From: an uncultured Rhodospirillaceae bacterium
GTDB taxonomy: Bacteria; Pseudomonadota; Alphaproteobacteria; Dongiales; Dongiaceae
DNA length: 64,000 nucleotides
Reading direction: 5' to 3'
Assembly (NCBI GenBank): GCA_964411425.1
Contig: CAYPKW010000002.1
Span: forward strand, 45,512-109,511
Shown: positions 4,628 through 14,092 of the stretch, piece after piece
Layout of the letters: each line of letters opens with the position of its first letter
Position numbering within the stretch: the stretch's first letter is position 1
Notes under the pieces: generated by a model
The model's database searches: none
Told to the model about the DNA's origin: nothing
The model's input: only the letters and a program-made list of their open reading frames with translations
Made by a program: the position numbers and the translations under genes

Positions 4628-6544
4628 TCAGCGGCCGCCACTCTGTCCGAGGCCGCCGGGCGCCGCGAAGGTGCGCTCGATGTAGGCGACGATGCGCGCC
4701 ACGCACTCGGCCACCGACGAATGCGCGGTATCGACCGCCAGTTCGGGCGCTTCGGGTGCCTCATAAGGGGCCGATACGCCGGTGAACTCCGCGATCTCCC
4801 CGCGGCGCGCCTTCTTGTACAGGCCCTTGGGGTCGCGCCGCTCGCAGGTCTCCAAGTCGGCTTCCACGTAGACTTCGTGAAACAGGTCCTGGGCCGCTTC
4901 CCGGGCGCGCCGGCGGTCGGCACGGTAGGGCGAGATGAACGCGGTTATCGCGATCATGCCGGCGCCGGCGAACAGCGCGGCCACCTCGCCCACCCGGCGG
5001 ATGTTCTCGGCCCGATCGTCGGGCGAGAACCCGAGATTGGCGTTGAGCCCGTGGCGGACGTTGTCGCCGTCGAGCACGTAGACCTGGAAGCCGCGCCGGA
5101 ACAGCTCCTGCTCGACCGCCATGGCGAGGGTCGACTTGCCGGCGCCCGACAGGCCGGTGAACCACAGGACGCCGCCACGGTGGCCGTTGCGGGCGTTGCG
5201 CGCCTCGAACGTCACGCGATGCTCGACCCAGTGCAGGTTGCTCGAACGCACCGTTACCTGCTCGCGCTGGTCGGGATAGCCCTGCATGTTGATGAGGCCG
5301 CCGGCCACGATGTTGTGGCCATCCGTCAGCACGAAGCGCCCGGTGCGCGGCATGACGTGGCCCTCGTCGAGGGCGAGCAACGGGCGGGCGCGCAACACCA
5401 CGTCGGCCACGCCGTTGTGCGGCACCTCGCTGGCGGGCCGTCCGACGAGCGCGTCGGCGTCGAACGCCCGCTCGATCTCCTGGACCTCGACCGACGTCTC
5501 GCGCGTCAGCACCCGCAGCCGGTACTCCTGGCCGACCTTGAGCGGCGCCCGGCCCAGCCAGAACAGCCGGCCGCGGAACACATTGGTTTCGATCGGCGGA
5601 TGATCCTCGCGGCTCGCCAACTCGCCGCGCTCGACGAACAAAGGCTCGTCGAGGGTAATGCCGATCGACTGCCCGGCGCCGGCCTCGACGAGCGGCTGCG
5701 GCCGGTTCCACGACTCGATGCTGGCGACCCGCGCCGACTTGTTGGAGGGCGAGAACATGAGGCGGTCGCCGACGCCGAGCCGCCCGCTCTCGACGCGCCC
5801 CACCAGGATGCGCCGCTCGTCGAACTTGTAGACGTCCTGGATGGGAAGGCGCAGCGGCAAGTCCGTGGGCCGCGGCGCGGCGCGGAACCCGTCGAGCGCC
5901 TCGATGACGGTCGGCCCGTCGTACCAGCCCATGGCCGCCGAGCGATGCACGATGTTGTCGCCCTCGCGCGCCGACACCGGAATGAAATGGTCGGCGTCGA
6001 CGCCGATCCCCGCCAGGTACTTCGCGTAGGCGCCGCGGATGTCGTCGAAGCGCGCGGCGGAATGGCCCACCAAATCCATCTTGTTGACCACGACGGCGAT
6101 CTGGCGGATGCCGAGCAGATGCAAGAGGAAGCCGTGCACGCGCGACTGCTGCTGCACGCCCTGTCCCGCGTCGATCAACAGCAGCGCGGCCTCGGCGCTC
6201 GACGCGCCGGTGATCATGTTCTTGAGGAACTCGCGGTGGCCGGGCGCGTCGATGACGACGTAGTCGCGGGCCGCGGTGCGAAACCAGATCTGCGCGGTGT
6301 CGATGGTGATGCCCTGGTCGCGCTCGGCCTGGAAAGCGTCCATCAGGAAGGCCCATTCGAACGGCATGCCGCGCCGATCGCACATGGCCTGGATCGCCTC
6401 GAGCTTGCCGTCGGGCAGCGAGCCGGTGTCGTGGAACAGGCGGCCGACGAGCGTCGACTTGCCGTGGTCGACGTGACCCACGATGACGAGGCGCAGCGGC
6501 TCGCGCGGGCGGACCGCGACCGACAGCTCGACGGGGCGCGTCAT
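4628..6544 (-). CDS. cysNC: bifunctional sulfate adenylyltransferase subunit 1 / adenylylsulfate kinase
   Basis: N-terminal translational-GTPase domain (GHVDHGKSTL, DAPGH, NKMD). C-terminal APS kinase has P-loop GLSGAGKST. Start ATG 6544 overlaps the cysD stop by 1 nt (TGATG). The longer ORF to 6895 is an artefact. Confidence 0.9.
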   Translation of the reverse strand: MTRPVELSVAVRPREPLRLVIVGHVDHGKSTLVGRLFHDTGSLPDGKLEAIQAMCDRRGMPFEWAFLMDAFQAERDQGITIDTAQIWFRTAARDYVVIDAPGHREFLKNMITGASSAEAALLLIDAGQGVQQQSRVHGFLLHLLGIRQIAVVVNKMDLVGHSAARFDDIRGAYAKYLAGIGVDADHFIPVSAREGDNIVHRSAAMGWYDGPTVIEALDGFRAAPRPTDLPLRLPIQDVYKFDERRILVGRVESGRLGVGDRLMFSPSNKSARVASIESWNRPQPLVEAGAGQSIGITLDEPLFVERGELASREDHPPIETNVFRGRLFWLGRAPLKVGQEYRLRVLTRETSVEVQEIERAFDADALVGRPASEVPHNGVADVVLRARPLLALDEGHVMPRTGRFVLTDGHNIVAGGLINMQGYPDQREQVTVRSSNLHWVEHRVTFEARNARNGHRGGVLWFTGLSGAGKSTLAMAVEQELFRRGFQVYVLDGDNVRHGLNANLGFSPDDRAENIRRVGEVAALFAGAGMIAITAFISPYRADRRRAREAAQDLFHEVYVEADLETCERRDPKGLYKKARRGEIAEFTGVSAPYEAPEAPELAVDTAHSSVAECVARIVAYIERTFAAPGGLGQSGGR

Positions 6545-7338
6545 CACATGTACCCCGCCGCGCGCAGGCGCTCGAAGGCGTCCTCGGTCTCGCGGTCCAT
6601 GGCGCGCCCGGCGCGCTCCGGCGTGCGCGTCGATTCGAGCTCGGCGAGGATCTGCTCCAGGGTGGCGGCCTCGCTCGGCACCGGAAACGTTATGTCCATG
6701 TCGCCCAGCGAACGATACCGCTTGCCGTTCCTGGCGAAGTAGAGATCGACCACCGGAACGCCCTCGCGCTGCACGTAACGCCAGACGTCGAGCTCGGTCC
6801 AGTGCAGTAGCGGATGCACGCGCAGGTGCGTTCCCGCCGGCAGGTCGGTGTTGAAGTGGTCCCAGAACTCGGGCGGCTGGTCGCGGAAATCCCACTGGCC
6901 CGCGTCACCGCGCGGGCTGAAGACGCGCTCCTTGGCGCGGACGCTCTCCTCGTCGCGCCGGATGCCGGCGATGATGCCGGTGAACTTGTGCTTGGCGATC
7001 GCGGCCTTGAGCCCCCCCGTCTTGCGCGCCGCCGAGCGCGCATTGGGCGGCAGGGTCGGATCGACGGCCTCGACCGGCGGGCACGGCTCGACGACAAGGT
7101 TGAGGCCCCATTCCCCCGCGCAGCGATCGCGCAGCGCGTACATCTCCGGGAACTTCTTGCCGGTGTCGATGTGCATGACCGGGAACGGCACGCGCCCGAA
7201 GAACGCCTTCAGCCCGAGCCAGACCATGACATTGCTGTCCTTGCCCAACGACCACAGCATGGCCAGCCGCTCGACGCGGCTGAACGCCTCGCGCAAGATG
7301 TAGACGCTCTGCGATTCGAGCTGGTCGAGATGATCCAT
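6544..7338 (-). CDS. cysD: sulfate adenylyltransferase subunit 2
   Basis: PAPS-reductase/ATP-sulfurylase small-subunit pattern (SLGKDSNVM PP-loop variant, ...ARKTGGLKAAI..., RAGRAMDRE). Start taken at MDHLDQLESQS (7338). Confidence 0.9.
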   Translation of the reverse strand: MDHLDQLESQSVYILREAFSRVERLAMLWSLGKDSNVMVWLGLKAFFGRVPFPVMHIDTGKKFPEMYALRDRCAGEWGLNLVVEPCPPVEAVDPTLPPNARSAARKTGGLKAAIAKHKFTGIIAGIRRDEESVRAKERVFSPRGDAGQWDFRDQPPEFWDHFNTDLPAGTHLRVHPLLHWTELDVWRYVQREGVPVVDLYFARNGKRYRSLGDMDITFPVPSEAATLEQILAELESTRTPERAGRAMDRETEDAFERLRAAGYM

Positions 7339-7397
7339 CGAGCGAGGCGCCTGATTTGCCGGGCGGCTGCGGCGTTTACCCGCTTCGCGGCGGAAAA

Positions 7398-7763
7398 TCA
7401 ACCGCCTCGCCCGGGCGGGGGCCGGCGCCATTCAAGCACGGCGAGAAGGCAGCCGGTGTCGGTGCGCGAGTTGTGCCGGGTGCCTGGGCTGTAGCTCACG
7501 AAGTCGCCTGTGCGGAACACCGTGCCGTCGTCGTCGATGAGCTCGCCTTCGAGGACGACGAAATCCTCCATGCCCGCATGGTCGTGGGCGATGGTGACGG
7601 CGCCCGGCTGCATGCGCATGAGATAGCAGCCGTTGCCGGCGGCCCTGTCGTAGCTCACCGGCAGCCAGCCGATCTCCGGCTGCAGCGGACCTTCGAGGTC
7701 GTAGGGCAGGAACGCGGTCGAATCGGCTCTCACCACCTTCCGCCCCGCCACTTTCCTCTCCAT
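7398..7763 (-). CDS. stand-alone cupin protein resembling the C-terminal cupin of ChrR-type anti-sigma factors
   Basis: Cupin motif HDHAGMEDFVVLEGELIDDDG...GDFVSYSPGTRH. It is only 121 aa and has no N-terminal zinc-binding anti-sigma (ZAS) domain. It is divergent from the bufferin-type operon. Confidence 0.6.
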   Translation of the reverse strand: MERKVAGRKVVRADSTAFLPYDLEGPLQPEIGWLPVSYDRAAGNGCYLMRMQPGAVTIAHDHAGMEDFVVLEGELIDDDGTVFRTGDFVSYSPGTRHNSRTDTGCLLAVLEWRRPPPGRGG

Positions 7764-7888
7764 CCCATGACCCCCGTCGGCTGCCCAAGCTCACGCCATC
7801 ATCACGCAGGAGTGATTATGCTCGCATCGAAATCTTGTCGAGTATGGCGGTGCGTGAATCGATGCCCCCCAACGAATGAGGTAATCAG

Positions 7889-8191
7889 ATGAACCGCATG
7901 CATGTAAGCGCTGCGCTGGCCACGGCCGTCACCCTCGCATTGGCAATGCCGAGCGGGCCGGCCCGCGCGGATGCCGCCATGGACGAGATGATGAAGCAGG
8001 GCGAGATGGACATGAAGGCCGGCAAGATCGAAAAATGTTACGGCGTAAACGTCGCGGGCAAGAACGACTGCCAGACCGCGACGGCCTCCTGTGCCGGCTC
8101 CGCGACGAAGGACTTCGACAAGTCCGCGTTCATCATCGTGCCGTCGGGTACCTGCGGGAAGATCGCCGGCGGCAGCCCGTCGCCGTCCTGA
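7889..8191 (+). CDS. bufA: DUF2282-type four-Cys secreted peptide precursor (BufA1-like), copy 1, with Met-rich N-terminal extension
   Basis: SD GAGG lies 7 nt upstream. Signal peptide MNRMHVSAALATAVTLALAMPSGPARA is followed by DAAMDEMMKQGEMDMKAGKI. The core is [24 protein letters not shown]...PSGTCGKIAGGS. Confidence 0.85.
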   Translation: MNRMHVSAALATAVTLALAMPSGPARADAAMDEMMKQGEMDMKAGKIEKCYGVNVAGKNDCQTATASCAGSATKDFDKSAFIIVPSGTCGKIAGGSPSPS

Positions 8192-8470
8192 TCGCCTCGG
8201 CGGTCGCCGCACCGCCATCCGCGCCGGCGCTCCCGAGCGCCCGTCGATAGCCGCCGGGCATGAATCCCATAGGCAAATCATAGTTCCCCGGCGGCTCGCC
8301 GGATTGCTATGAGTGCCGGCGACCGCTGGCACGTCGCGCGGCCGGAAATCGGTACGTCAAATCTTCGTGAAACCAAGATGTTGCAGGCCGCCGACGATTG
8401 CCAAGCCATGTTAGCGTCGCCACGTCTGTCGGCGTCGCGACAATCCAACAAACTCTCAGGAGGACCGAAC

Positions 8471-8737
8471 ATGAAGACCCCGATTCTTGTCTCTACCGCC
8501 ATGGCCGCGGCGATCACGATTGCCAGCATGGCCGGCGCCCAGGCCGGCAAGGCCCCGGTGCCGAGCTACGAGAACGAGAAGTGTTTCGGCATCGCCTATG
8601 CCGGCAAGAACGACTGCCAGACCGCCAACAGCTCCTGCGCGGGAACCTCGAAGAAGGACCAGCAGGTCGACGCCTGGATCTACGTCCCGGCGGGGACCTG
8701 CGACAAGATCGTTGGCGGCAGCCTGCCAAAGACCTGA
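8471..8737 (+). CDS. bufA: DUF2282-type four-Cys secreted peptide precursor (BufA1-like), copy 2
   Basis: SD AGGAGG. Signal peptide [25 protein letters not shown], then core [24 protein letters not shown]...[12 protein letters not shown]. The longer ORF from 8309 has no support. Confidence 0.85.
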
Positions 8738-8768
8738 CCGGCGCCATCGTCGAGTGGATGTCCCTAGG

Positions 8769-9653
8769 ATGTCGCGCATCGGCTCGACGACGTTCAAGCG
8801 GGGCCCGATCTCGGCCGCGGCCGGGATCGGGCTTCGCCAAGTTCACCACCGCGACGTCCTCGATGCCCGGCCGTCGGTGGGTTTCCTCGAGGTGCACCCG
8901 GAGAACTACCTGGGCGGCGGAGCCAATCTGCATTACCTGACCGAGCTGCGCCGCGACTACCCGATCAGCCTGCACGCCGTCGGGATCTCGCTCGGCACCG
9001 ACGGGCCGCTCGACCGCGAGCATCTGTCCCGCCTGGCGGAACTGGCGGAGCGCATCGAGCCGGCGCTGGTGTCGGAGCACTTGTCCTGGAGCATCGCCGA
9101 CGGCGTCTACCTCAACGACCTTCTGCCGTTGCCCTACACGGAGGAAGCCCTTGGCGTCGTGGCGCGCCACGTGGACGAGGTGCAGGAGTACCTGGGGCGC
9201 AAGATTCTGCTGGAGAATCCGTCCACCTACCTGCGCTTCGTCCATTCCAGCCTAAGCGAGCAGGAGTTCCTGGCCGAGGTCGCGCGCCGCACCGGCTGCG
9301 GCGTGCTCTTGGATGTGAACAATCTGTACGTCAGCGCGATGAACCACGGGTTCGAGCCCGATGCGTACCTGCGCGGACTGCCCGCGGCGATAGGCGAAAT
9401 CCATCTCGCCGGCCACAGCGTGAAACGGGTCGACGGCGTCAGCCTGCGCATCGACGACCACGGCTCGGCGGTCGATGCCGCCGTCTGGCGGTTGTACGAG
9501 AAGGCGCTCGCCAGGTTCGGGCCGCTGCCTACCCTCATCGAATGGGACACCGACATCCCGCCGCTGCCGGTTCTGGTCGGCGAAGCGGAAAAGGCGGCGG
9601 ACGCGCTGGCGAAGGCAGCGCGACGGGAGGCAGTCCATGCCGTCACTGCGTGA
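8769..9653 (+). CDS. bufB: DUF692 / MNIO-family (MbnB-like) TIM-barrel iron enzyme, BufB-like
   Basis: Typical DUF692 blocks GIGLRQVHH, LEVHPENY, SLHAVGISLG, VSEHLSW, LLENPS, DVNNLYVS, IHLAGH. Start is ATG 8769 (or GTG 8754), 32 nt after precursor copy 2. Confidence 0.85.
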   Translation: MSRIGSTTFKRGPISAAAGIGLRQVHHRDVLDARPSVGFLEVHPENYLGGGANLHYLTELRRDYPISLHAVGISLGTDGPLDREHLSRLAELAERIEPALVSEHLSWSIADGVYLNDLLPLPYTEEALGVVARHVDEVQEYLGRKILLENPSTYLRFVHSSLSEQEFLAEVARRTGCGVLLDVNNLYVSAMNHGFEPDAYLRGLPAAIGEIHLAGHSVKRVDGVSLRIDDHGSAVDAAVWRLYEKALARFGPLPTLIEWDTDIPPLPVLVGEAEKAADALAKAARREAVHAVTA

Positions 9654-10428
9654 GCTGCAGGGCGCGATCCGCGCCGGCATCCTGGGCGCGGGCGGCGACA
9701 GCGTATTGCCGCTGATCGTCCCCGATGGACTCAAGCCCGAGGGCCGGCTCGCGGTCTACCGCAACAACACGTTCATCAGTCTCACCGCGGCCCTGAAAGC
9801 CACCTTCCCCGTGGTCTGCCGCCTGGTCGACGAGCGTTTCTTCGCCTATGCCGCGGCCGCTTATGTTCGCGAGCGGCCGCCGACGCGGCCTTGCGTTGCC
9901 GAATACGGCGCCGACTTCGCCGATTTCCTGGCCGCCTTCGAGCCGGCCCGTCGGCTTGTCTATCTGCCCGACGTGGCGCGGCTCGAATGGGCCATCAACC
10001 TCGCCCGTCACGCCCCCGACGCCGCGATATTCGACCCGGCGCGGCTCGCGGCCGTGCCCGCCGAGCGGCAAGGGGCTGTCGCCTTCATCCTGCATCCCGC
10101 CTGCCGCCTCGTCACGTCAGGCTACCCGATCGAGCCGATCTGGCGGGCCAACCAGCCGGATGGCGATGGCGCGGCCGACCTTGCCGCCGGCCCGAGCCGC
10201 CTCATCGTCTATCGCCGGGTCCTCGACGTTCATCTCGCCGACCTCGGTGCCGCCGGTTACGCCTTCGCGGCGGCGCTCGCCCTGGGCCGGGCGTTGCAAC
10301 GGGCCTACGAGGCCGCCACCGCCGTCGATCTCGATTTCGATCTTGCCGTGGCGCTGCATTGGCATTTCGCCCGCGGGACCATCGCGGGCTTCATCCTTCC
10401 CGACAGAGACGATGGAGGCCACTCATGA
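9637..10428 (+). CDS. bufC: DUF2063-family partner protein, BufC-like
   Basis: MPSLRELQGAIRAGILG..., VYRNN..., LPDVARLEWA... match my recollection of DUF2063. SD GGGAGG. The start overlaps bufB by 17 nt. Confidence 0.75.
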   Translation: MPSLRELQGAIRAGILGAGGDSVLPLIVPDGLKPEGRLAVYRNNTFISLTAALKATFPVVCRLVDERFFAYAAAAYVRERPPTRPCVAEYGADFADFLAAFEPARRLVYLPDVARLEWAINLARHAPDAAIFDPARLAAVPAERQGAVAFILHPACRLVTSGYPIEPIWRANQPDGDGAADLAAGPSRLIVYRRVLDVHLADLGAAGYAFAAALALGRALQRAYEAATAVDLDFDLAVALHWHFARGTIAGFILPDRDDGGHS

Positions 10429-10892
10429 GTACCACGCTGCCCGAACGCACCGCCGTCACCGGGATTCCGGCGTTGATCGCCGCGATCATCGGCGCCGTGG
10501 AGAGGGTTCCCATCGCCATCCCGGCCTTCGTGCTGCGCCTTGGGGTGGCGCTCGTGTTCTGGCGCTCCGCCAAGACCAAGCTCGCCAACTGGGACCTGAC
10601 CGTCCAGCTCTTCGCCGACGAGTACAAGGTGCCGGTGCTGCCGCCCGAGGTCGCCGCCTTTCTGGCGACCTCGGTGGAGCTCGCCGCGCCCATCATGCTG
10701 CTCGTCGGGCTCGCGACGCGCCTCGGCGCCGCGGCCATGCTGGGCATGACGCTGGTGATCCAAATCTTCGTCTATCCGACGAGCTATCCGGATCACCTGC
10801 TGTGGGCGGGTCCGCTGCTGTACCTGGTCCTGCGCGGACCGGGCGCCATCTCGATCGATCACTTGATCCGCGGGCGTTACATCGGCGCGTGA
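10425..10892 (+). CDS. DoxX-family integral membrane protein
   Basis: Four predicted TM segments and a DoxX-like pattern (RLGVALVFWRSAKTKL...ELAAPIMLLVGLATRLGA...). ATGA start/stop overlap with bufC. Confidence 0.8.
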   Translation: MSTTLPERTAVTGIPALIAAIIGAVERVPIAIPAFVLRLGVALVFWRSAKTKLANWDLTVQLFADEYKVPVLPPEVAAFLATSVELAAPIMLLVGLATRLGAAAMLGMTLVIQIFVYPTSYPDHLLWAGPLLYLVLRGPGAISIDHLIRGRYIGA

Positions 10893-10910
10893 CGGGCACG
10901 GCGCCGGCGC

Positions 10911-10940
10911 CGGTGTCCATGCCGGCACACCGCCGTTTTT
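10911..10940 (+). terminator. candidate intrinsic terminator after the DoxX gene
   Basis: Imperfect stem CGGTGTCC...GGCACACCG followed by CCGTTTTT, about 20 nt after the stop codon. Confidence 0.4.
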
Positions 10941-11283
10941 CGGCCGCCTCCAGCGAGCCTCCAGCGAGAGGGAGAAAATTCGACGATCAACCCCACGCGC
11001 AGCGGGGCGCCGCTAGGCCCCGCTTGGCGAGGGCCGGGCCAACCACAACAGGTAGGGGGGTCCGCCGGGCTGCGCCCCGTGGGCCGGACGGCGCCGCAGC
11101 GGCAAGGGGATCGGCGGCGTCATGCGTAAGCAAGGTGTCCAGGCATCGATTTTTCGAGGAACGACCCGAATCGCCGCGGGACGGCGCCGTTTTTCGGGCC
11201 ACCTGAAGGTGCTTCACGATTTCAAACAGCGCCCGCCCGGAGGCGGGGCGGCCCAAGGGCCTTCGCCCGCGGACCGCAAGTCG

Positions 11284-11299
11284 GTTCCATTTTAGGAAC
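11284..11299. promoter_or_regulatory. inverted repeat GTTCC-N6-GGAAC in an AT-rich patch upstream of the ureohydrolase gene
   Basis: GTTCCATTTTAGGAAC sits in the only AT-rich stretch of the 490-bp intergenic region, about 130 nt upstream of ATG 11428. Confidence 0.2.
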
Positions 11300-11345
11300 T
11301 TTTTCACGCGTGTCAAGGGAGTCGTAGCGGGCTCGCGCTCGGCGC

Positions 11346-11365
11346 ATAGCCGGCGCGCCGGCTAT
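11346..11365. promoter_or_regulatory. perfect 20-bp palindrome (operator or hairpin)
   Basis: ATAGCCGGCGCGCCGGCTAT is exactly self-complementary. It lies 62 nt upstream of ATG 11428. Confidence 0.25.
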
Positions 11366-11427
11366 TTGCCCCGCGCCGCCGCTGGGCTATGCTGGCGGAT
11401 TCGTGCCGTCGGCCGAAGGGGAAGACC

Positions 11428-12630
11428 ATGGCAACGCGGAAGCCGCCGCGCTCCGGCGGAGCGGGCAAGCAGCAGTTCCGGGGCAATCGCAACCTCGAAC
11501 GCTTGTCGCGCATCTCCCAGACCAAGCAATCGGAGGAGGTGAAGCGTTCTCTTAAACTCGGCCTGGAGGCCGCCGGGTCCGTCGTCGACCGCACCATCTC
11601 GTGCTTCAGCCGCGGCCACCAGCCGGCCTTCGCCGGCATCAACACCTTCATGAAGGCGCCGTACTGCGAGGACGTGCGCAAGGTGCGGAAGTACGAGGCC
11701 GCGTTCGTCGGCGTCCCCTTCGACACCGCCACCACCTACCGGCCGGGCGCCCGCTTCGGCCCGCAGGCGGTGCGCCGCATCTCGGCGCTTTACGACGGCT
11801 ATTCGGTGGACGGCGCGGTCGACATCTACGAAGAGCTCGACTTGTGCGACATCGGCGACGTGTTCGTCATTCCGGGTAACATCGAAAAGACGTTCGATCA
11901 GGTGACCAAGGCCGTGTCGCACATCTTCACCGCGGGCGTGTTCCCGATCATCTGCGGCGGCGACCACAGCCTCGGATTTCCCAACCTGCGCGGCATCGCG
12001 CCCCACATCGAGGGCAACGTCGGCATCATCCACATCGACCGCCACCTGGACATCCAGGAAAAGGACATGGACGAGCGGATGCACACCACGCCGTGGTACT
12101 GGACCACGCACGAGCCCGCCTCGACCACCCATCGCGACCACAGCCACATGCACGACGTGGGCCTGCCCAACTGCCTCCCTGTGAACCTGGTGCAGATGGG
12201 CATCGGCGGCTGGTACGGCTCGCGCCCCGGCGCCATCGTCGCCAAACGCCGCGGCACCTCGGTCCTCACCATGACGGACATCACGGAGCGCGGGCCGGCG
12301 GGGGCGGCGGAGGTGGCGCTGGAGCTCGCCTGGAAGGGCTGCAAGGCGGTCTATCTCTCGTTCGACATCGATTCGATCGACCCCGGCTTCGCGCCGGGCA
12401 CCGGGTCGCCGGAGCCGGGCGGCCTGTTGCCGCGCGAGGCCCTGGAGATGGTGCGGATCATCGCCCGCGAGGGCTTGTGCGGCATGGAGGTGGTCGAGGT
12501 GTCGCCGCCCTACGACGTGAACGACAACACCGCCCAGCTCGCCTGCCGCGTGATGCTCGACGCGCTGGGGAGCATGTGCGTCGAGGGCAAGCTCGGGCAC
12601 CGCTCCCGCGTCATGAAGCGCGGCCGCTGA
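11428..12630 (+). CDS. arginase/agmatinase-family ureohydrolase (guanidino-compound hydrolase) with His-rich loop insertion
   Basis: Family motifs [15 protein letters not shown] (DxHxD) and [31 protein letters not shown] precedes ATG 11428. Extra His-rich segment [25 protein letters not shown] lies between motifs 2 and 3. Confidence 0.8.
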
Positions 12631-12640
12631 GGCGGGCCCT

Positions 12641-13651
12641 ATGACCGACCACGAGGTGTTCGCCGCGGGCGACGTGGTGTTGCAGTGCGGGCTGACGCTG
12701 CGCGAGGCCAAGCTCGCCTACAAGTGCCATGGCACGCTGAACAAGGACAAAACGAACGCCGTCGTCTTTCCGACCCGCTTCTCCGGCCGGCACGCCGACA
12801 ACGAGTACCTGATCGGCGAGGGCATGGCGCTCGACCCGAAGCGCTACTTCATCGTCGTCCCCAACCTGCTCGGCAACGGGCTTTCATCCTCGCCCAGCAA
12901 TACGCCGCCGCCGTTCGACAAGGCGCGGTTCCCCAATGTCACCATCCATGACAACGTCATGCTCCAGCGCCGCCTGCTGACCGAGCGCTTCGGCGTCGAG
13001 CGCGTGGCGCTGGCGGTCGGCTGGTCGATGGGGGCGCAGCAGGCGTACCACTGGGCGGCCCTCTTCCCCACCTGTGTCGAGCGGCTGGCGGCGATCGGCG
13101 GCTCGGCGCGCACCTCCGACCATAACTTCGTGTTCCTCGAGGGTGTGAAATCGGCGCTCACCGCCGACGCCGCCTGGAACGGCGGCTGGTACGACAAGCC
13201 GCCCGCCGTCGGCCTCAGGGCGATGGCGCGGGTGTGGGCCGGCTGGGGGCTGTCGCAGGCCTTCTACCGGGAGAAGCTCTACAAGACGATGGGCTACGCC
13301 ACGGTCGAGGACTTCCTCGTGGGCTGGTGGGAGGGGCTGTTCCTGCAGCGCGACGCCAACAACCTGCTGGCGTTGATCTGGACCTGGCAGCACGGCGACG
13401 TGAGCGCCAATGACCTCTACAAGGGCGATTTCGAGAAGGCACTGGCGGCCATCGAGGCCAAGGCGATCGTCATGCCGGGCGCGACCGATCTCTACTTCCC
13501 GCCCGAGGACAACGCCAACGAGGTGCGGCACATGCGCCGGGCCGAGCTGCGCCCCATCCCCTCGATCTGGGGCCACTACGCCGGCGGCGGGCGCGACGCC
13601 GCCGCGGCCCGGTTCATCGACGCGGCGCTCAAGGAGTTGTTGGCGGGCTGA
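12641..13651 (+). CDS. MetX-like alpha/beta hydrolase / acyltransferase (homoserine O-acetyltransferase family)
   Basis: GWSMG nucleophile elbow and overall MetX-like layout ([13 protein letters not shown]..., [13 protein letters not shown]..., ...WGHYAGG). Confidence 0.7.
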
Positions 13652-13666
13652 CGGAGGTTCATTGTC

Positions 13667-14092
13667 ATGAGCGACTTCAAACCGATTCACGGGCGTTGCC
13701 AGTGCGGGGCCGTGCGCTACCGGGTCGATGCGCCCGCCATCGAGCTGTACCATTGCCACTGCTCGATGTGCCGGCGCTGCCACGGCACGCTGTTCGCCAC
13801 CTACGCCACCGTCCCGCGCCAAAGCCTGGTGATCGAAGCCGGAGCCGACAATCTCGCCACCTACGACAGTTCGCCCCCGGTGCACCGGCATTTCTGCCGC
13901 ACCTGCGGCTGCCAACTGCTGCTCGACGACGACCGCTGGCCGGACCTCAAGTGGTACACGCCCGGCACCTGCGACGGCCATCCGGGGCACCGGCCCGAGG
14001 TCGAGGCGCACATTTTCACCAACTCGAAGGTGGCATGGTACCGCATCTCGGACGGGCTGCCGCAATACCCGGAGTTCGCGCCGCAGGTGTGA
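13667..14092 (+). CDS. GFA / CENP-V family zinc protein (glutathione-dependent formaldehyde-activating-like)
   Basis: Cys pattern GRCQCGAVRY, CHCSMCRRCHG and FCRTCG. Confidence 0.8.
   Translation: MSDFKPIHGRCQCGAVRYRVDAPAIELYHCHCSMCRRCHGTLFATYATVPRQSLVIEAGADNLATYDSSPPVHRHFCRTCGCQLLLDDDRWPDLKWYTPGTCDGHPGHRPEVEAHIFTNSKVAWYRISDGLPQYPEFAPQV

Follow-up and report, generated by a model that had tools for sequence, protein, structure and literature searches.

Whether one pair of modifying enzymes serves two dissimilar precursor proteins is the question raised by a locus in the stretch of DNA analyzed here, a 64-kb region (64,000 nucleotides [nt] of contig CAYPKW010000002.1 from an uncultured Rhodospirillaceae bacterium) hereafter called the window. 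Positions 7889-10892 of the window contain five open reading frames (ORFs), which a first-pass annotation had described as an operon for a ribosomally made peptide with post-translational modification (RiPP) of the bufferin type, namely two DUF2282 precursor genes followed by genes for a DUF692 protein, or multinuclear non-heme iron oxidase (MNIO), a DUF2063 protein and a DoxX membrane protein. The five ORFs are all present, their products exceed the curated cut-offs of the respective Pfam or NCBIfam profiles, and these profiles together with a BufB-specific model agree on a RiPP cluster of the bufferin type. The results of our analysis indicate that the region 8471-10892 is in all probability (roughly 80%) a canonical bufferin-1 (Buf1) cluster with the gene order bufA-bufB-bufC-doxX, that is, a gig-like cluster for a DUF2282-type captophorin. 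It is preceded by a second DUF2282 gene that belongs to another subfamily (7889-8191). The product of this upstream gene is abbreviated as AL and the classical precursor of the cluster as As. The locus had also been singled out as the most likely special system of the window, in keeping with our finding that the 64 kb contain a single MNIO/DUF2063/DoxX set and, as DUF2282 genes, AL and As only.

The probable bufferin-1 cluster and its predicted modifying enzymes

As (8471..8737, + strand) is an 88-residue precursor of the classical BufA1 type, which matches PF10048 over the full model with 86.7 bits (cutoff 22.4). Its predicted signal peptide covers residues 1-25 with a heuristic cleavage site AQA/G, and its Cys residues lie at positions 38, 49, 56 and 77. 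The heuristic applied to both precursors considers a basic n-region, the hydropathy maximum over 12 residues and an AxA site; the maxima are 2.09 and 1.99 for the two proteins, both of which have an N-terminal basic residue and N-termini that line up with those of their homologues. Shine-Dalgarno sequences lie in front of both genes, GAGG 8-11 nt 5′ of the AL start codon and AGGAGG 8-13 nt 5′ of that of As; the strong ribosome-binding sites and, by the heuristic, the Sec-type A-x-A signal peptides previously noticed for this pair are upheld. Four Cys columns are invariant in 119 DUF2282 homologues. The four-Cys core that had been proposed for AL and As is indeed shared by them, but with a different spacing: two residues, not three, separate QTA from SCAG, and 16 rather than about 20 lie between SCAG and GTC.

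The stop codon of As is followed after 31 nt by the start of bufB at 8769. BufB (8769..9653, +; 294 residues), an MNIO (DUF692) of the bufferin maturase type, passes the NCBIfam equivalog NF050167 MNIO_BufB with 374.5 bits against a cutoff of 310 and obtains 343.6 bits with PF05114 (MbnB_TglH_ChrH), whereas its score with the MbnB model is merely 54 bits (cutoff 325). It contains all the motifs expected from the earlier description (GIGLR, EVHPENY, SEHLSW and HLAGH), and its closest solved structure is 3BWW (E = 6.5e-42). The gene for the DUF2063 partner BufC (9637..10428, +; 263 residues) starts 17 nt inside bufB, and the product matches PF09836 with 79.1 bits (cutoff 27.2); its score of 42.3 bits with NF050145 HvfC is below threshold, and BufC has no sequence relative among solved structures. 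An ATGA overlap couples bufC to the gene for DoxX, or BufD (10425..10892, +), a common but non-essential component of such clusters and a membrane protein of 155 residues with 62 bits for PF07681 and a weak match of 25.6 bits to MauE. Both junctions had been correctly read in the first-pass annotation, as had the hairpin and T-run that close the unit: a terminator-like hairpin (ACGGCG...CGCCGU) occupies positions 10898-10936 3′ of doxX and is followed by TTTTT (10936-10940), in the sequence as well as in the minimum free energy (MFE) fold of the + strand, even if a simple terminator scan missed it.

The enzymatic competence of BufB was evaluated from phmmer alignments to the MbnB structures 7fc0 and 7tcr and to 3BWW. 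The iron ligands of MbnB are H54, H90, E133, D163, N166, H192, D208, H210 and E239 (PMC9060507). Residues H69, H104, E149 and D182 of BufB align with H54, H90, E133 and D163 of MbnB, and its N185, H212, D229 and H231 with N166, H192, D208 and H210; the equivalence of E259 with E239 is placed only from the 3BWW alignment and from spacing, because the alignments with MbnB end at query residues 231-236. By these alignments all nine residues equivalent to the iron site of MbnB are conserved in BufB, and the absence of metal ligands, which had been named as a possible refutation of the bufferin assignment, is not what we found.

The closest characterized relative of the locus is buf1ABCD of Caulobacter vibrioides (CCNA_03363-03366; Leprevost et al. 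2024, PMC11626156), in which the four families and their succession are those of the window. The two loci differ in the additional, heterologous DUF2282 gene lying upstream in the window, and in the adjacent sigF-nrsF genes and GTAACC-N16-CGAA box of Caulobacter, which the window does not have; the window system is, moreover, known from its genes alone. In Caulobacter, the two central precursor Cys become 5-thiooxazoles through BufB1 and BufC1, which are both necessary and sufficient; neither DoxX nor the signal peptide is needed for this reaction. The resulting bufferin 1 is a ligand of Cu(I)/Cu(II) and confers protection from copper (PMC11626156). The four-gene architecture is also shared with the gig (gold-induced genes) operons of Cupriavidus metallidurans and Legionella pneumophila (PMC5413113; cited in PMC11626156), for which metal induction has been demonstrated and which have a single precursor, as opposed to the two precursors of the window, a locus described from sequence. 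Methanobactin biosynthesis by MbnABC provides a more distant comparison. There, an MNIO with the same iron ligands makes a copper ligand out of Cys residues in a ribosomal peptide, but its partner is MbnC rather than a DUF2063 protein, its substrate is a short leader/core peptide devoid of a Sec signal, and its product is an oxazolone/thioamide, unlike the thiooxazole that we infer for the window.

If the Caulobacter system is taken as a guide, the cytoplasmic step would be a reaction with oxygen at the multi-iron site of BufB, with BufC as partner, in which 5-thiooxazoles arise from the two central precursor Cys. The Sec signal peptide would afterwards carry the small protein to the periplasm and be cleaved at the AxA site. 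The first and last Cys would then form a disulfide and the heterocycles would chelate excess Cu(I)/Cu(II), with DoxX presumably being a redox accessory in the membrane on which the modification does not depend. The best reading of the locus is, by this analogy, that the canonical bufferin-1 system would produce from As a periplasmic thiooxazole chelator of copper; we infer both the chemistry and copper as the metal from the characterized homologue.

AL and the Met-helix clade of DUF2282 proteins

AL (7889..8191, +), a protein of 100 residues of the long DUF2282/BufA1 type, also matches PF10048 (72.5 bits, cutoff 22.4), has a predicted signal peptide at residues 1-27 (ARA/D) and carries its four Cys at positions 50, 61, 68 and 89. 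Its identity to As is 48%. Sequence searches with AL return about 46 clusters of proteins of 97-114 residues, which align over their full length at E <= 3e-24, before a drop to DUF2282 proteins of 83-90 residues. The long proteins form the clade defined in this analysis as the Met-helix DUF2282 clade, which is characterized by an insertion of about 20 residues that separates the EKC motif from the signal peptide; within this insertion M31, M34 and M35 (M-x-x-M-M) are invariant in 45 sequences of the clade. Outside its own sub-branch, AL is 58-75% identical to the other members. An AlphaFold2 model of AL (mean pLDDT 69, with 80-86 over residues 31-50) places a helix at residues 27-43 and strands at 47-53 and 77-85, the helix being followed by a two-strand and short-helix core as described for Buf1. 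The i, i+3, i+4 spacing of the three Met would, in this model, set them on one helical face. A Foldseek search of the model against the Protein Data Bank gave no match at E <= 0.001.

The view of AL and As as two diverged precursors is therefore only partly sustained: the two proteins do differ, with 48% identity, but they are not diverged duplicates. On sequence comparison AL is not a simple diverged copy of As but a member of a separate conserved clade with a Met-bearing helix, and for the same reasons its origin as a recent duplicate of As was rejected. Neither the Met-helix subfamily nor its association with DoxX and sigmaF (see below) is described in the consulted passages of the recent MNIO survey (Antoine et al. 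2025, PMC12452194), which covers 5,268 MNIO loci associated with DUF2282.

We then examined how often such pairs of precursors occur, using a sample of 29 loci from genomes and 80 from metagenomes, all with DUF2282 patterns (denoted by L numbers), in which DUF2282, BufB, BufC and DoxX were mapped with purpose-built HMMs. Since the sample is biased to AL-like and related sequences, the frequencies of genomic contexts derived from it are rough. Three of 45 loci in which a DUF2282 gene precedes BufB, and which have enough upstream sequence, contain a second tandem DUF2282 gene (L003, L059 and L068). Tandem precursor genes, as well as many DUF2282 genes away from MNIO, are already reported in the survey (PMC12452194), and the suggestion that two precursors before one enzyme pair depart from the canonical layout is not supported in that form. 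The pair in the window shares the tandem arrangement with those loci and differs in joining two subfamilies at 48% identity, whereas the other tandem pairs found, those of L059 and L068, are 85-86% identical and hence recent duplicates. The layout with two precursors is thus on record; what the analysis adds is the recognition of a Met-helix DUF2282 subfamily, a member of which lies here beside a full bufABCD set.

Several other arrangements appear in the sample. Many short DUF2282 genes of Legionella species and related metagenome-assembled genomes (MAGs; L015, L017-L023, L026-L028) stand alone, about 5 kb of flank on each side being free of BufB, BufC and DoxX. The order is reversed to MNIO, DUF2063, DUF2282 in L013, L029 and L030; a second, more distant MNIO-DUF2063 pair lies 5′ of DUF2282-BufB-BufC in L010 and L011; and DoxX is found between the precursor gene and BufB in L044 and L045.

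We lean towards the view that BufBC also accepts AL as a substrate, a possibility favored by the sequence of AL. The motifs KNDCQTA and SCAG, which surround the two Cys modified in Buf1, are kept in both AL and As; given that the signal peptide is dispensable for the modification (PMC11626156), recognition of the substrate lies in the core, where AL conserves the residues around the modifiable Cys. The presence of one MNIO/DUF2063 pair in the window points in the same direction, and so do two arrangements in related genomes, namely the recurrence of AL directly followed by a short precursor in L121, a second lineage, and the occurrence of AL and two short precursors ahead of one BufBC in L003. 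In addition, an MNIO gene is missing from just 21 of the 4072 complete genomes that carry DUF2282 genes, according to Table 3 of the survey (PMC12452194), which suggests that DUF2282 proteins of the orphan type generally co-occur with MNIO. Modified AL would then provide the periplasm with another metal-binding protein, one that has an additional face of Met residues.

Control of the precursor genes in the window and its relatives

The closest genome to the window is that of L003 (VFKA01), the MAG Rhodospirillales bacterium Bin_16_5, the AL of which is 90% identical. The order of genes in L003 is AL, an AhpC/TSA peroxiredoxin, a C92 YiiX-like amidase, two short precursors and bufB-bufC-doxX; its two short precursors are 69% identical to each other, the first of them (As1) is 76% identical to As, and AL lies 2.1 kb 5′ of the short precursors and BufBC. 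In L121, AL is 89% identical and is followed after 81 nt by the orthologue of As, the contig ending before any BufB gene. Each BufBC pair of this lineage is thus accompanied by two or three DUF2282 genes, the arrangement of which varies. A peroxiredoxin gene of the AhpC/TSA type directly follows AL not only in L003 (5465-6999, including the amidase) but also in L120 (1109-1621), and this proximity in two relatives hints at a redox link.

The spacer of 279 nt between AL and As (8192..8470, +) is strongly structured as RNA, with a fold z of -3.35 versus shuffled sequence. Its alignment with L003 identifies two elements, TCAAATCTTCGTGA at 8357-8370 and GCCATGTTAGCGTCG at 8405-8419, that are conserved 5′ of the orthologous short precursor As1. 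As1 is preceded by unrelated genes in L003 and yet shares these upstream elements with the window, which argues for a control region belonging to As-bufBCD. The element TCAAATCTTCGTGA shows no repeats above chance elsewhere in the window. The region upstream of AL (7764..7888, +) is for its part 93% identical to the same region of L003. Both the conserved element 5′ of As and the conserved upstream region of AL were counted in favor of separate units: AL probably has its own promoter, and As together with bufBCD another. The earlier proposal of a single operon is therefore not shown for all five genes, since the structured spacer and the conserved element 5′ of As intervene after AL; a description as two neighboring units suits them better than that of an established operon. 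A sigma-70 scan did not detect a promoter 5′ of AL or As, and an Rfam scan of 7300-11400 returned two sub-threshold chance matches only, to a eukaryotic miRNA and a lncRNA.

The regulation of AL in the rest of its clade follows another pattern. The box GTAAC(C)-N15/16-CGAA matches the experimentally defined sigmaF site of Caulobacter (PMC3511200), and a box of this type with at most one mismatch lies at a fixed distance 5′ of AL in 11 of 11 scanned loci outside the lineage of the window, the chance of such a box being about 2% per region. All ten AL-DoxX loci scanned (10/10) combine the box before AL with DoxX directly after it. Among loci with a short precursor followed by BufB, the box is present in 14 of 54. 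Unlike the rest of its clade, AL of the window has no sigmaF-type box and is not directly followed by DoxX; the box is also missing before AL of L003. With up to two mismatches, GTAACC-N16-CGAA matches the whole window 37 times versus 30 expected by chance, and none of these matches lies 5′ of the precursors. The best candidate 5′ of AL has three mismatches, and spacings of 15-17 add only a weak GAAACC-N17-CGAC at 8369, 5′ of As, which has two mismatches and is not conserved in L003. Searches of the 64-kb window by tblastn with SigF, NrsF and zf-HC2 anti-sigma queries from AL loci were equally negative. The window thus has neither the adjacent genes nor the promoter box of the SigF/NrsF-regulated subset of buf/gig loci.

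The position held by sigF-nrsF in other loci is occupied in the window by a divergent gene for a stand-alone ChrR-type cupin of 121 residues (7398..7763, - strand; Cupin_7 54.5 bits and Cupin_2 33.5 bits with Pfam), which we consider as context only. The same divergent pairing of cupin and AL is found in L003 (4524-4874, -) and L120 (55-405, -) and was not seen in the remaining long-clade loci. Further upstream, genes of sulfate activation occupy 4628-7431 (-) directly 5′ of the cupin gene, namely cysD (PAPS_reduct family) and a NodQ-like cysN/cysC fusion that encodes a GTPase and an APS kinase; an AsnC-type regulator is found in this place in L003, so that synteny ends at the cupin gene.

A block covering 7680-8190, which takes in the 5′ part of the cupin gene, the sequence between the two genes and AL as a whole, is 85-98% identical to L003 at the nucleotide level, whereas the remaining cupin gene is 65-83% identical and identity drops to 38% right after the stop codon of AL. 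Whichever two of the four closest lineages are compared, synonymous divergence (dS) of AL is 0.05-0.23, with ratios of nonsynonymous to synonymous divergence (dN/dS) of 0.3-1.1; the neighboring genes have corresponding dS values of 0.45-0.63 (As), 0.37-0.79 (cupin gene) and 0.93-0.99 (bufB, bufC and doxX). RNA structure as the cause of the low dS of AL was rejected, since the AL mRNA is no better folded than its shuffles (z = +0.61). A recent exchange of an AL cassette of about 0.5 kb among related lineages seems more likely than constraint at the sequence level.

AL as a possible substrate of BufBC or possible partner of DoxX

The alternative that survives best is that AL is an MNIO-independent periplasmic Cys/Met protein partnered with DoxX, which lies beside or has merged with bufABC, so that only the 88-residue protein would be a RiPP precursor. 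We regard it as unlikely on balance, even if it accounts for much of the genomic context. AL is directly followed by DoxX, MNIO and DUF2063 not being adjacent, in 15 of the 18 loci outside the organism of the window (L004, L032-L040, L112, L114, L117, L118 and the P0009 contig). This count includes seven additional context look-ups with Pfam annotations and excludes L001 and L002, which are identical copies of the organism of the window; L115, L116 and L119 repeat loci already listed, and a partial ORF after AL in L117 is unannotated. The Pfam-annotated look-ups display the typical module as a divergent nrsF-sigF, AL and DoxX. MNIO is missing from five contexts with a flank of 5-7 kb on at least one side (L004, L112, L115, L118 and the P0009 contig). 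The invariant MxxMM helix, furthermore, would be a separate potential site for metal or redox chemistry. These arguments are opposed by the exact retention in AL of the residues around the two Cys modified in Buf1 and by the near-universal presence of MNIO in DUF2282 genomes (PMC12452194). They are opposed also by L114, the only one of the Pfam-annotated look-ups in which an MNIO cluster lies within 7 kb of AL (MNIO-DUF2063-DoxX, 5.6 kb from AL-DoxX), and by the position of AL directly 5′ of a short precursor in the window and L121, and 2.1 kb 5′ in L003.

The ancestry of DoxX bears on the same alternative. When 62 DoxX proteins of the sampled loci are placed in a neighbour-joining tree, with bootstrap on 54 non-identical sequences, the DoxX proteins of the window and L003 are sister to those directly following AL genes (bootstrap 85/100) and do not group with the other BufC-linked DoxX. 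The BufC-linked DoxX of L114, a contig that also has an AL-DoxX pair, falls outside this group, which argues against a purely taxonomic explanation of the grouping. The modules formed by sigF-nrsF, a long DUF2282 gene and DoxX, as defined from metagenome and MAG loci (L004, L032-L040, L112, L114, L115 and L117-L119), are related to the window at both ends: its AL belongs to their clade and its DoxX is sister to theirs. The window differs from them in having neither the sigmaF box nor sigF-nrsF and in carrying As-bufB-bufC between AL and DoxX. Two histories would fit this pattern, either the insertion of an As-bufB-bufC unit between AL and its DoxX, or the origin of AL-DoxX modules, through duplication and loss, from a bufABCD operon that this group had. 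A bolder formulation, which we consider rather doubtful, is that the long DUF2282 type with MxxMM constitutes a distinct periplasmic module under sigmaF/NrsF control and partnered with DoxX instead of MNIO, the window being a merger of AL, As-bufB-bufC and an AL-type DoxX.

The copper connection of some of these modules is visible in L118 (1-12306; also L119), where the AL module sits inside a copper island with SCO1/SenC-like, ScsC, DsbD, CopC and CopD genes upstream and genes for a DsbA-like protein, an outer-membrane factor and a CusB-type adaptor downstream. In L112 (7001-14306), AL-DoxX stands beside an extracytoplasmic function (ECF) sigma factor with a zf-HC2 anti-sigma factor and a cupredoxin gene, and adjoins a mercury operon of the merR-merT-HMA-merB-merA type.

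These surroundings are relevant to another explanation, that the system, or at least AL, serves in defence against reactive chlorine or oxygen species or deals with another metal, with Met residues as sacrificial or recyclable sinks in the manner of MrpX. SigF/NrsF of Azospira responds to reactive chlorine species and drives expression of the periplasmic, Met-rich MrpX (PMC4436054), and AL genes elsewhere have the sigmaF box and adjacent sigF-nrsF. The peroxiredoxin gene directly after AL in L003 and L120 is consistent with such a role, whereas for another metal the indications are some bufferin fusions that point to mercury (PMC12452194) and the mer operon adjoining L112. MrpX resembles AL in being a small Sec-exported Met protein of the SigF regulon, as relatives of AL lie under sigmaF-type promoters, but it contains 20% Met and has no DUF2282 four-Cys fold, while AL has three invariant Met and the four-Cys core, with five Met in the 73 residues of the mature protein (about 7%). 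AL does not, therefore, combine the features of the MrpX type, which are about 20% Met, a high content of charged residues and no Cys fold. The characterized DUF2282 bufferins, besides, bind Cu and are induced by Cu and not by Fe, Zn or Mn (PMC11626156), and AL-DoxX of L118 is placed between CopC/CopD/ScsC/DsbD and a CusB-type efflux system. A defence of this kind, or a metal other than copper, appears improbable to us.

That AL is a decaying or non-functional duplicate, as its lack of the sigmaF box universal in the rest of the clade and the high dN/dS among its closest relatives (0.3-1.1) might suggest, is very hard to reconcile with an intact ORF provided with a Shine-Dalgarno sequence and a signal peptide, with the preservation of all four Cys and MxxMM, and with 88-90% identity to three relatives, which makes AL the most conserved gene of its neighborhood.

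We therefore return to the bufferin-1 cluster making a copper chelator from As, with AL as a second substrate of its enzymes, against which some observations have to be weighed. The succession of AL and DoxX, instead of BufB and BufC, in 15 of 18 loci makes the adjacency to BufBC exceptional for the clade, and AL may need no modification. Copper-resistance genes do not flank the locus: its neighbors are cysD/cysNC on one side and, at 11389-14092 (+), an arginase-family protein, an alpha/beta hydrolase and a GFA-family protein on the other, none of the downstream genes being metal-related. Since sigF/nrsF and the sigmaF box are absent from the window, metal-responsive regulation is not evidenced. 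Finally, the spacer between AL and As contains neither a T-run or canonical terminator nor an Rfam match, so that read-through from AL into As, and thus cotranscription of the two, is possible.

Bufferins, a class also named captophorins (PMC13097082), form a very large family characterized in 2024-2026, to which one more cluster adds little. The lead offered by this locus is the Met-helix subfamily, which is usually found with DoxX and a sigmaF promoter and without modifying enzymes, and which here stands before bufABCD. If AL and DoxX do constitute a module of their own, DoxX would act on the DUF2282 protein itself, for instance through a quinone-linked handling of its Cys pair, and some bufferins would work unmodified, or modified in trans, with Met and Cys as ligands. 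The lineage of the window is in this respect a natural test case for the modification of orphan DUF2282 proteins in trans, for the acceptance of diverged substrates by BufBC and for the role of DoxX.

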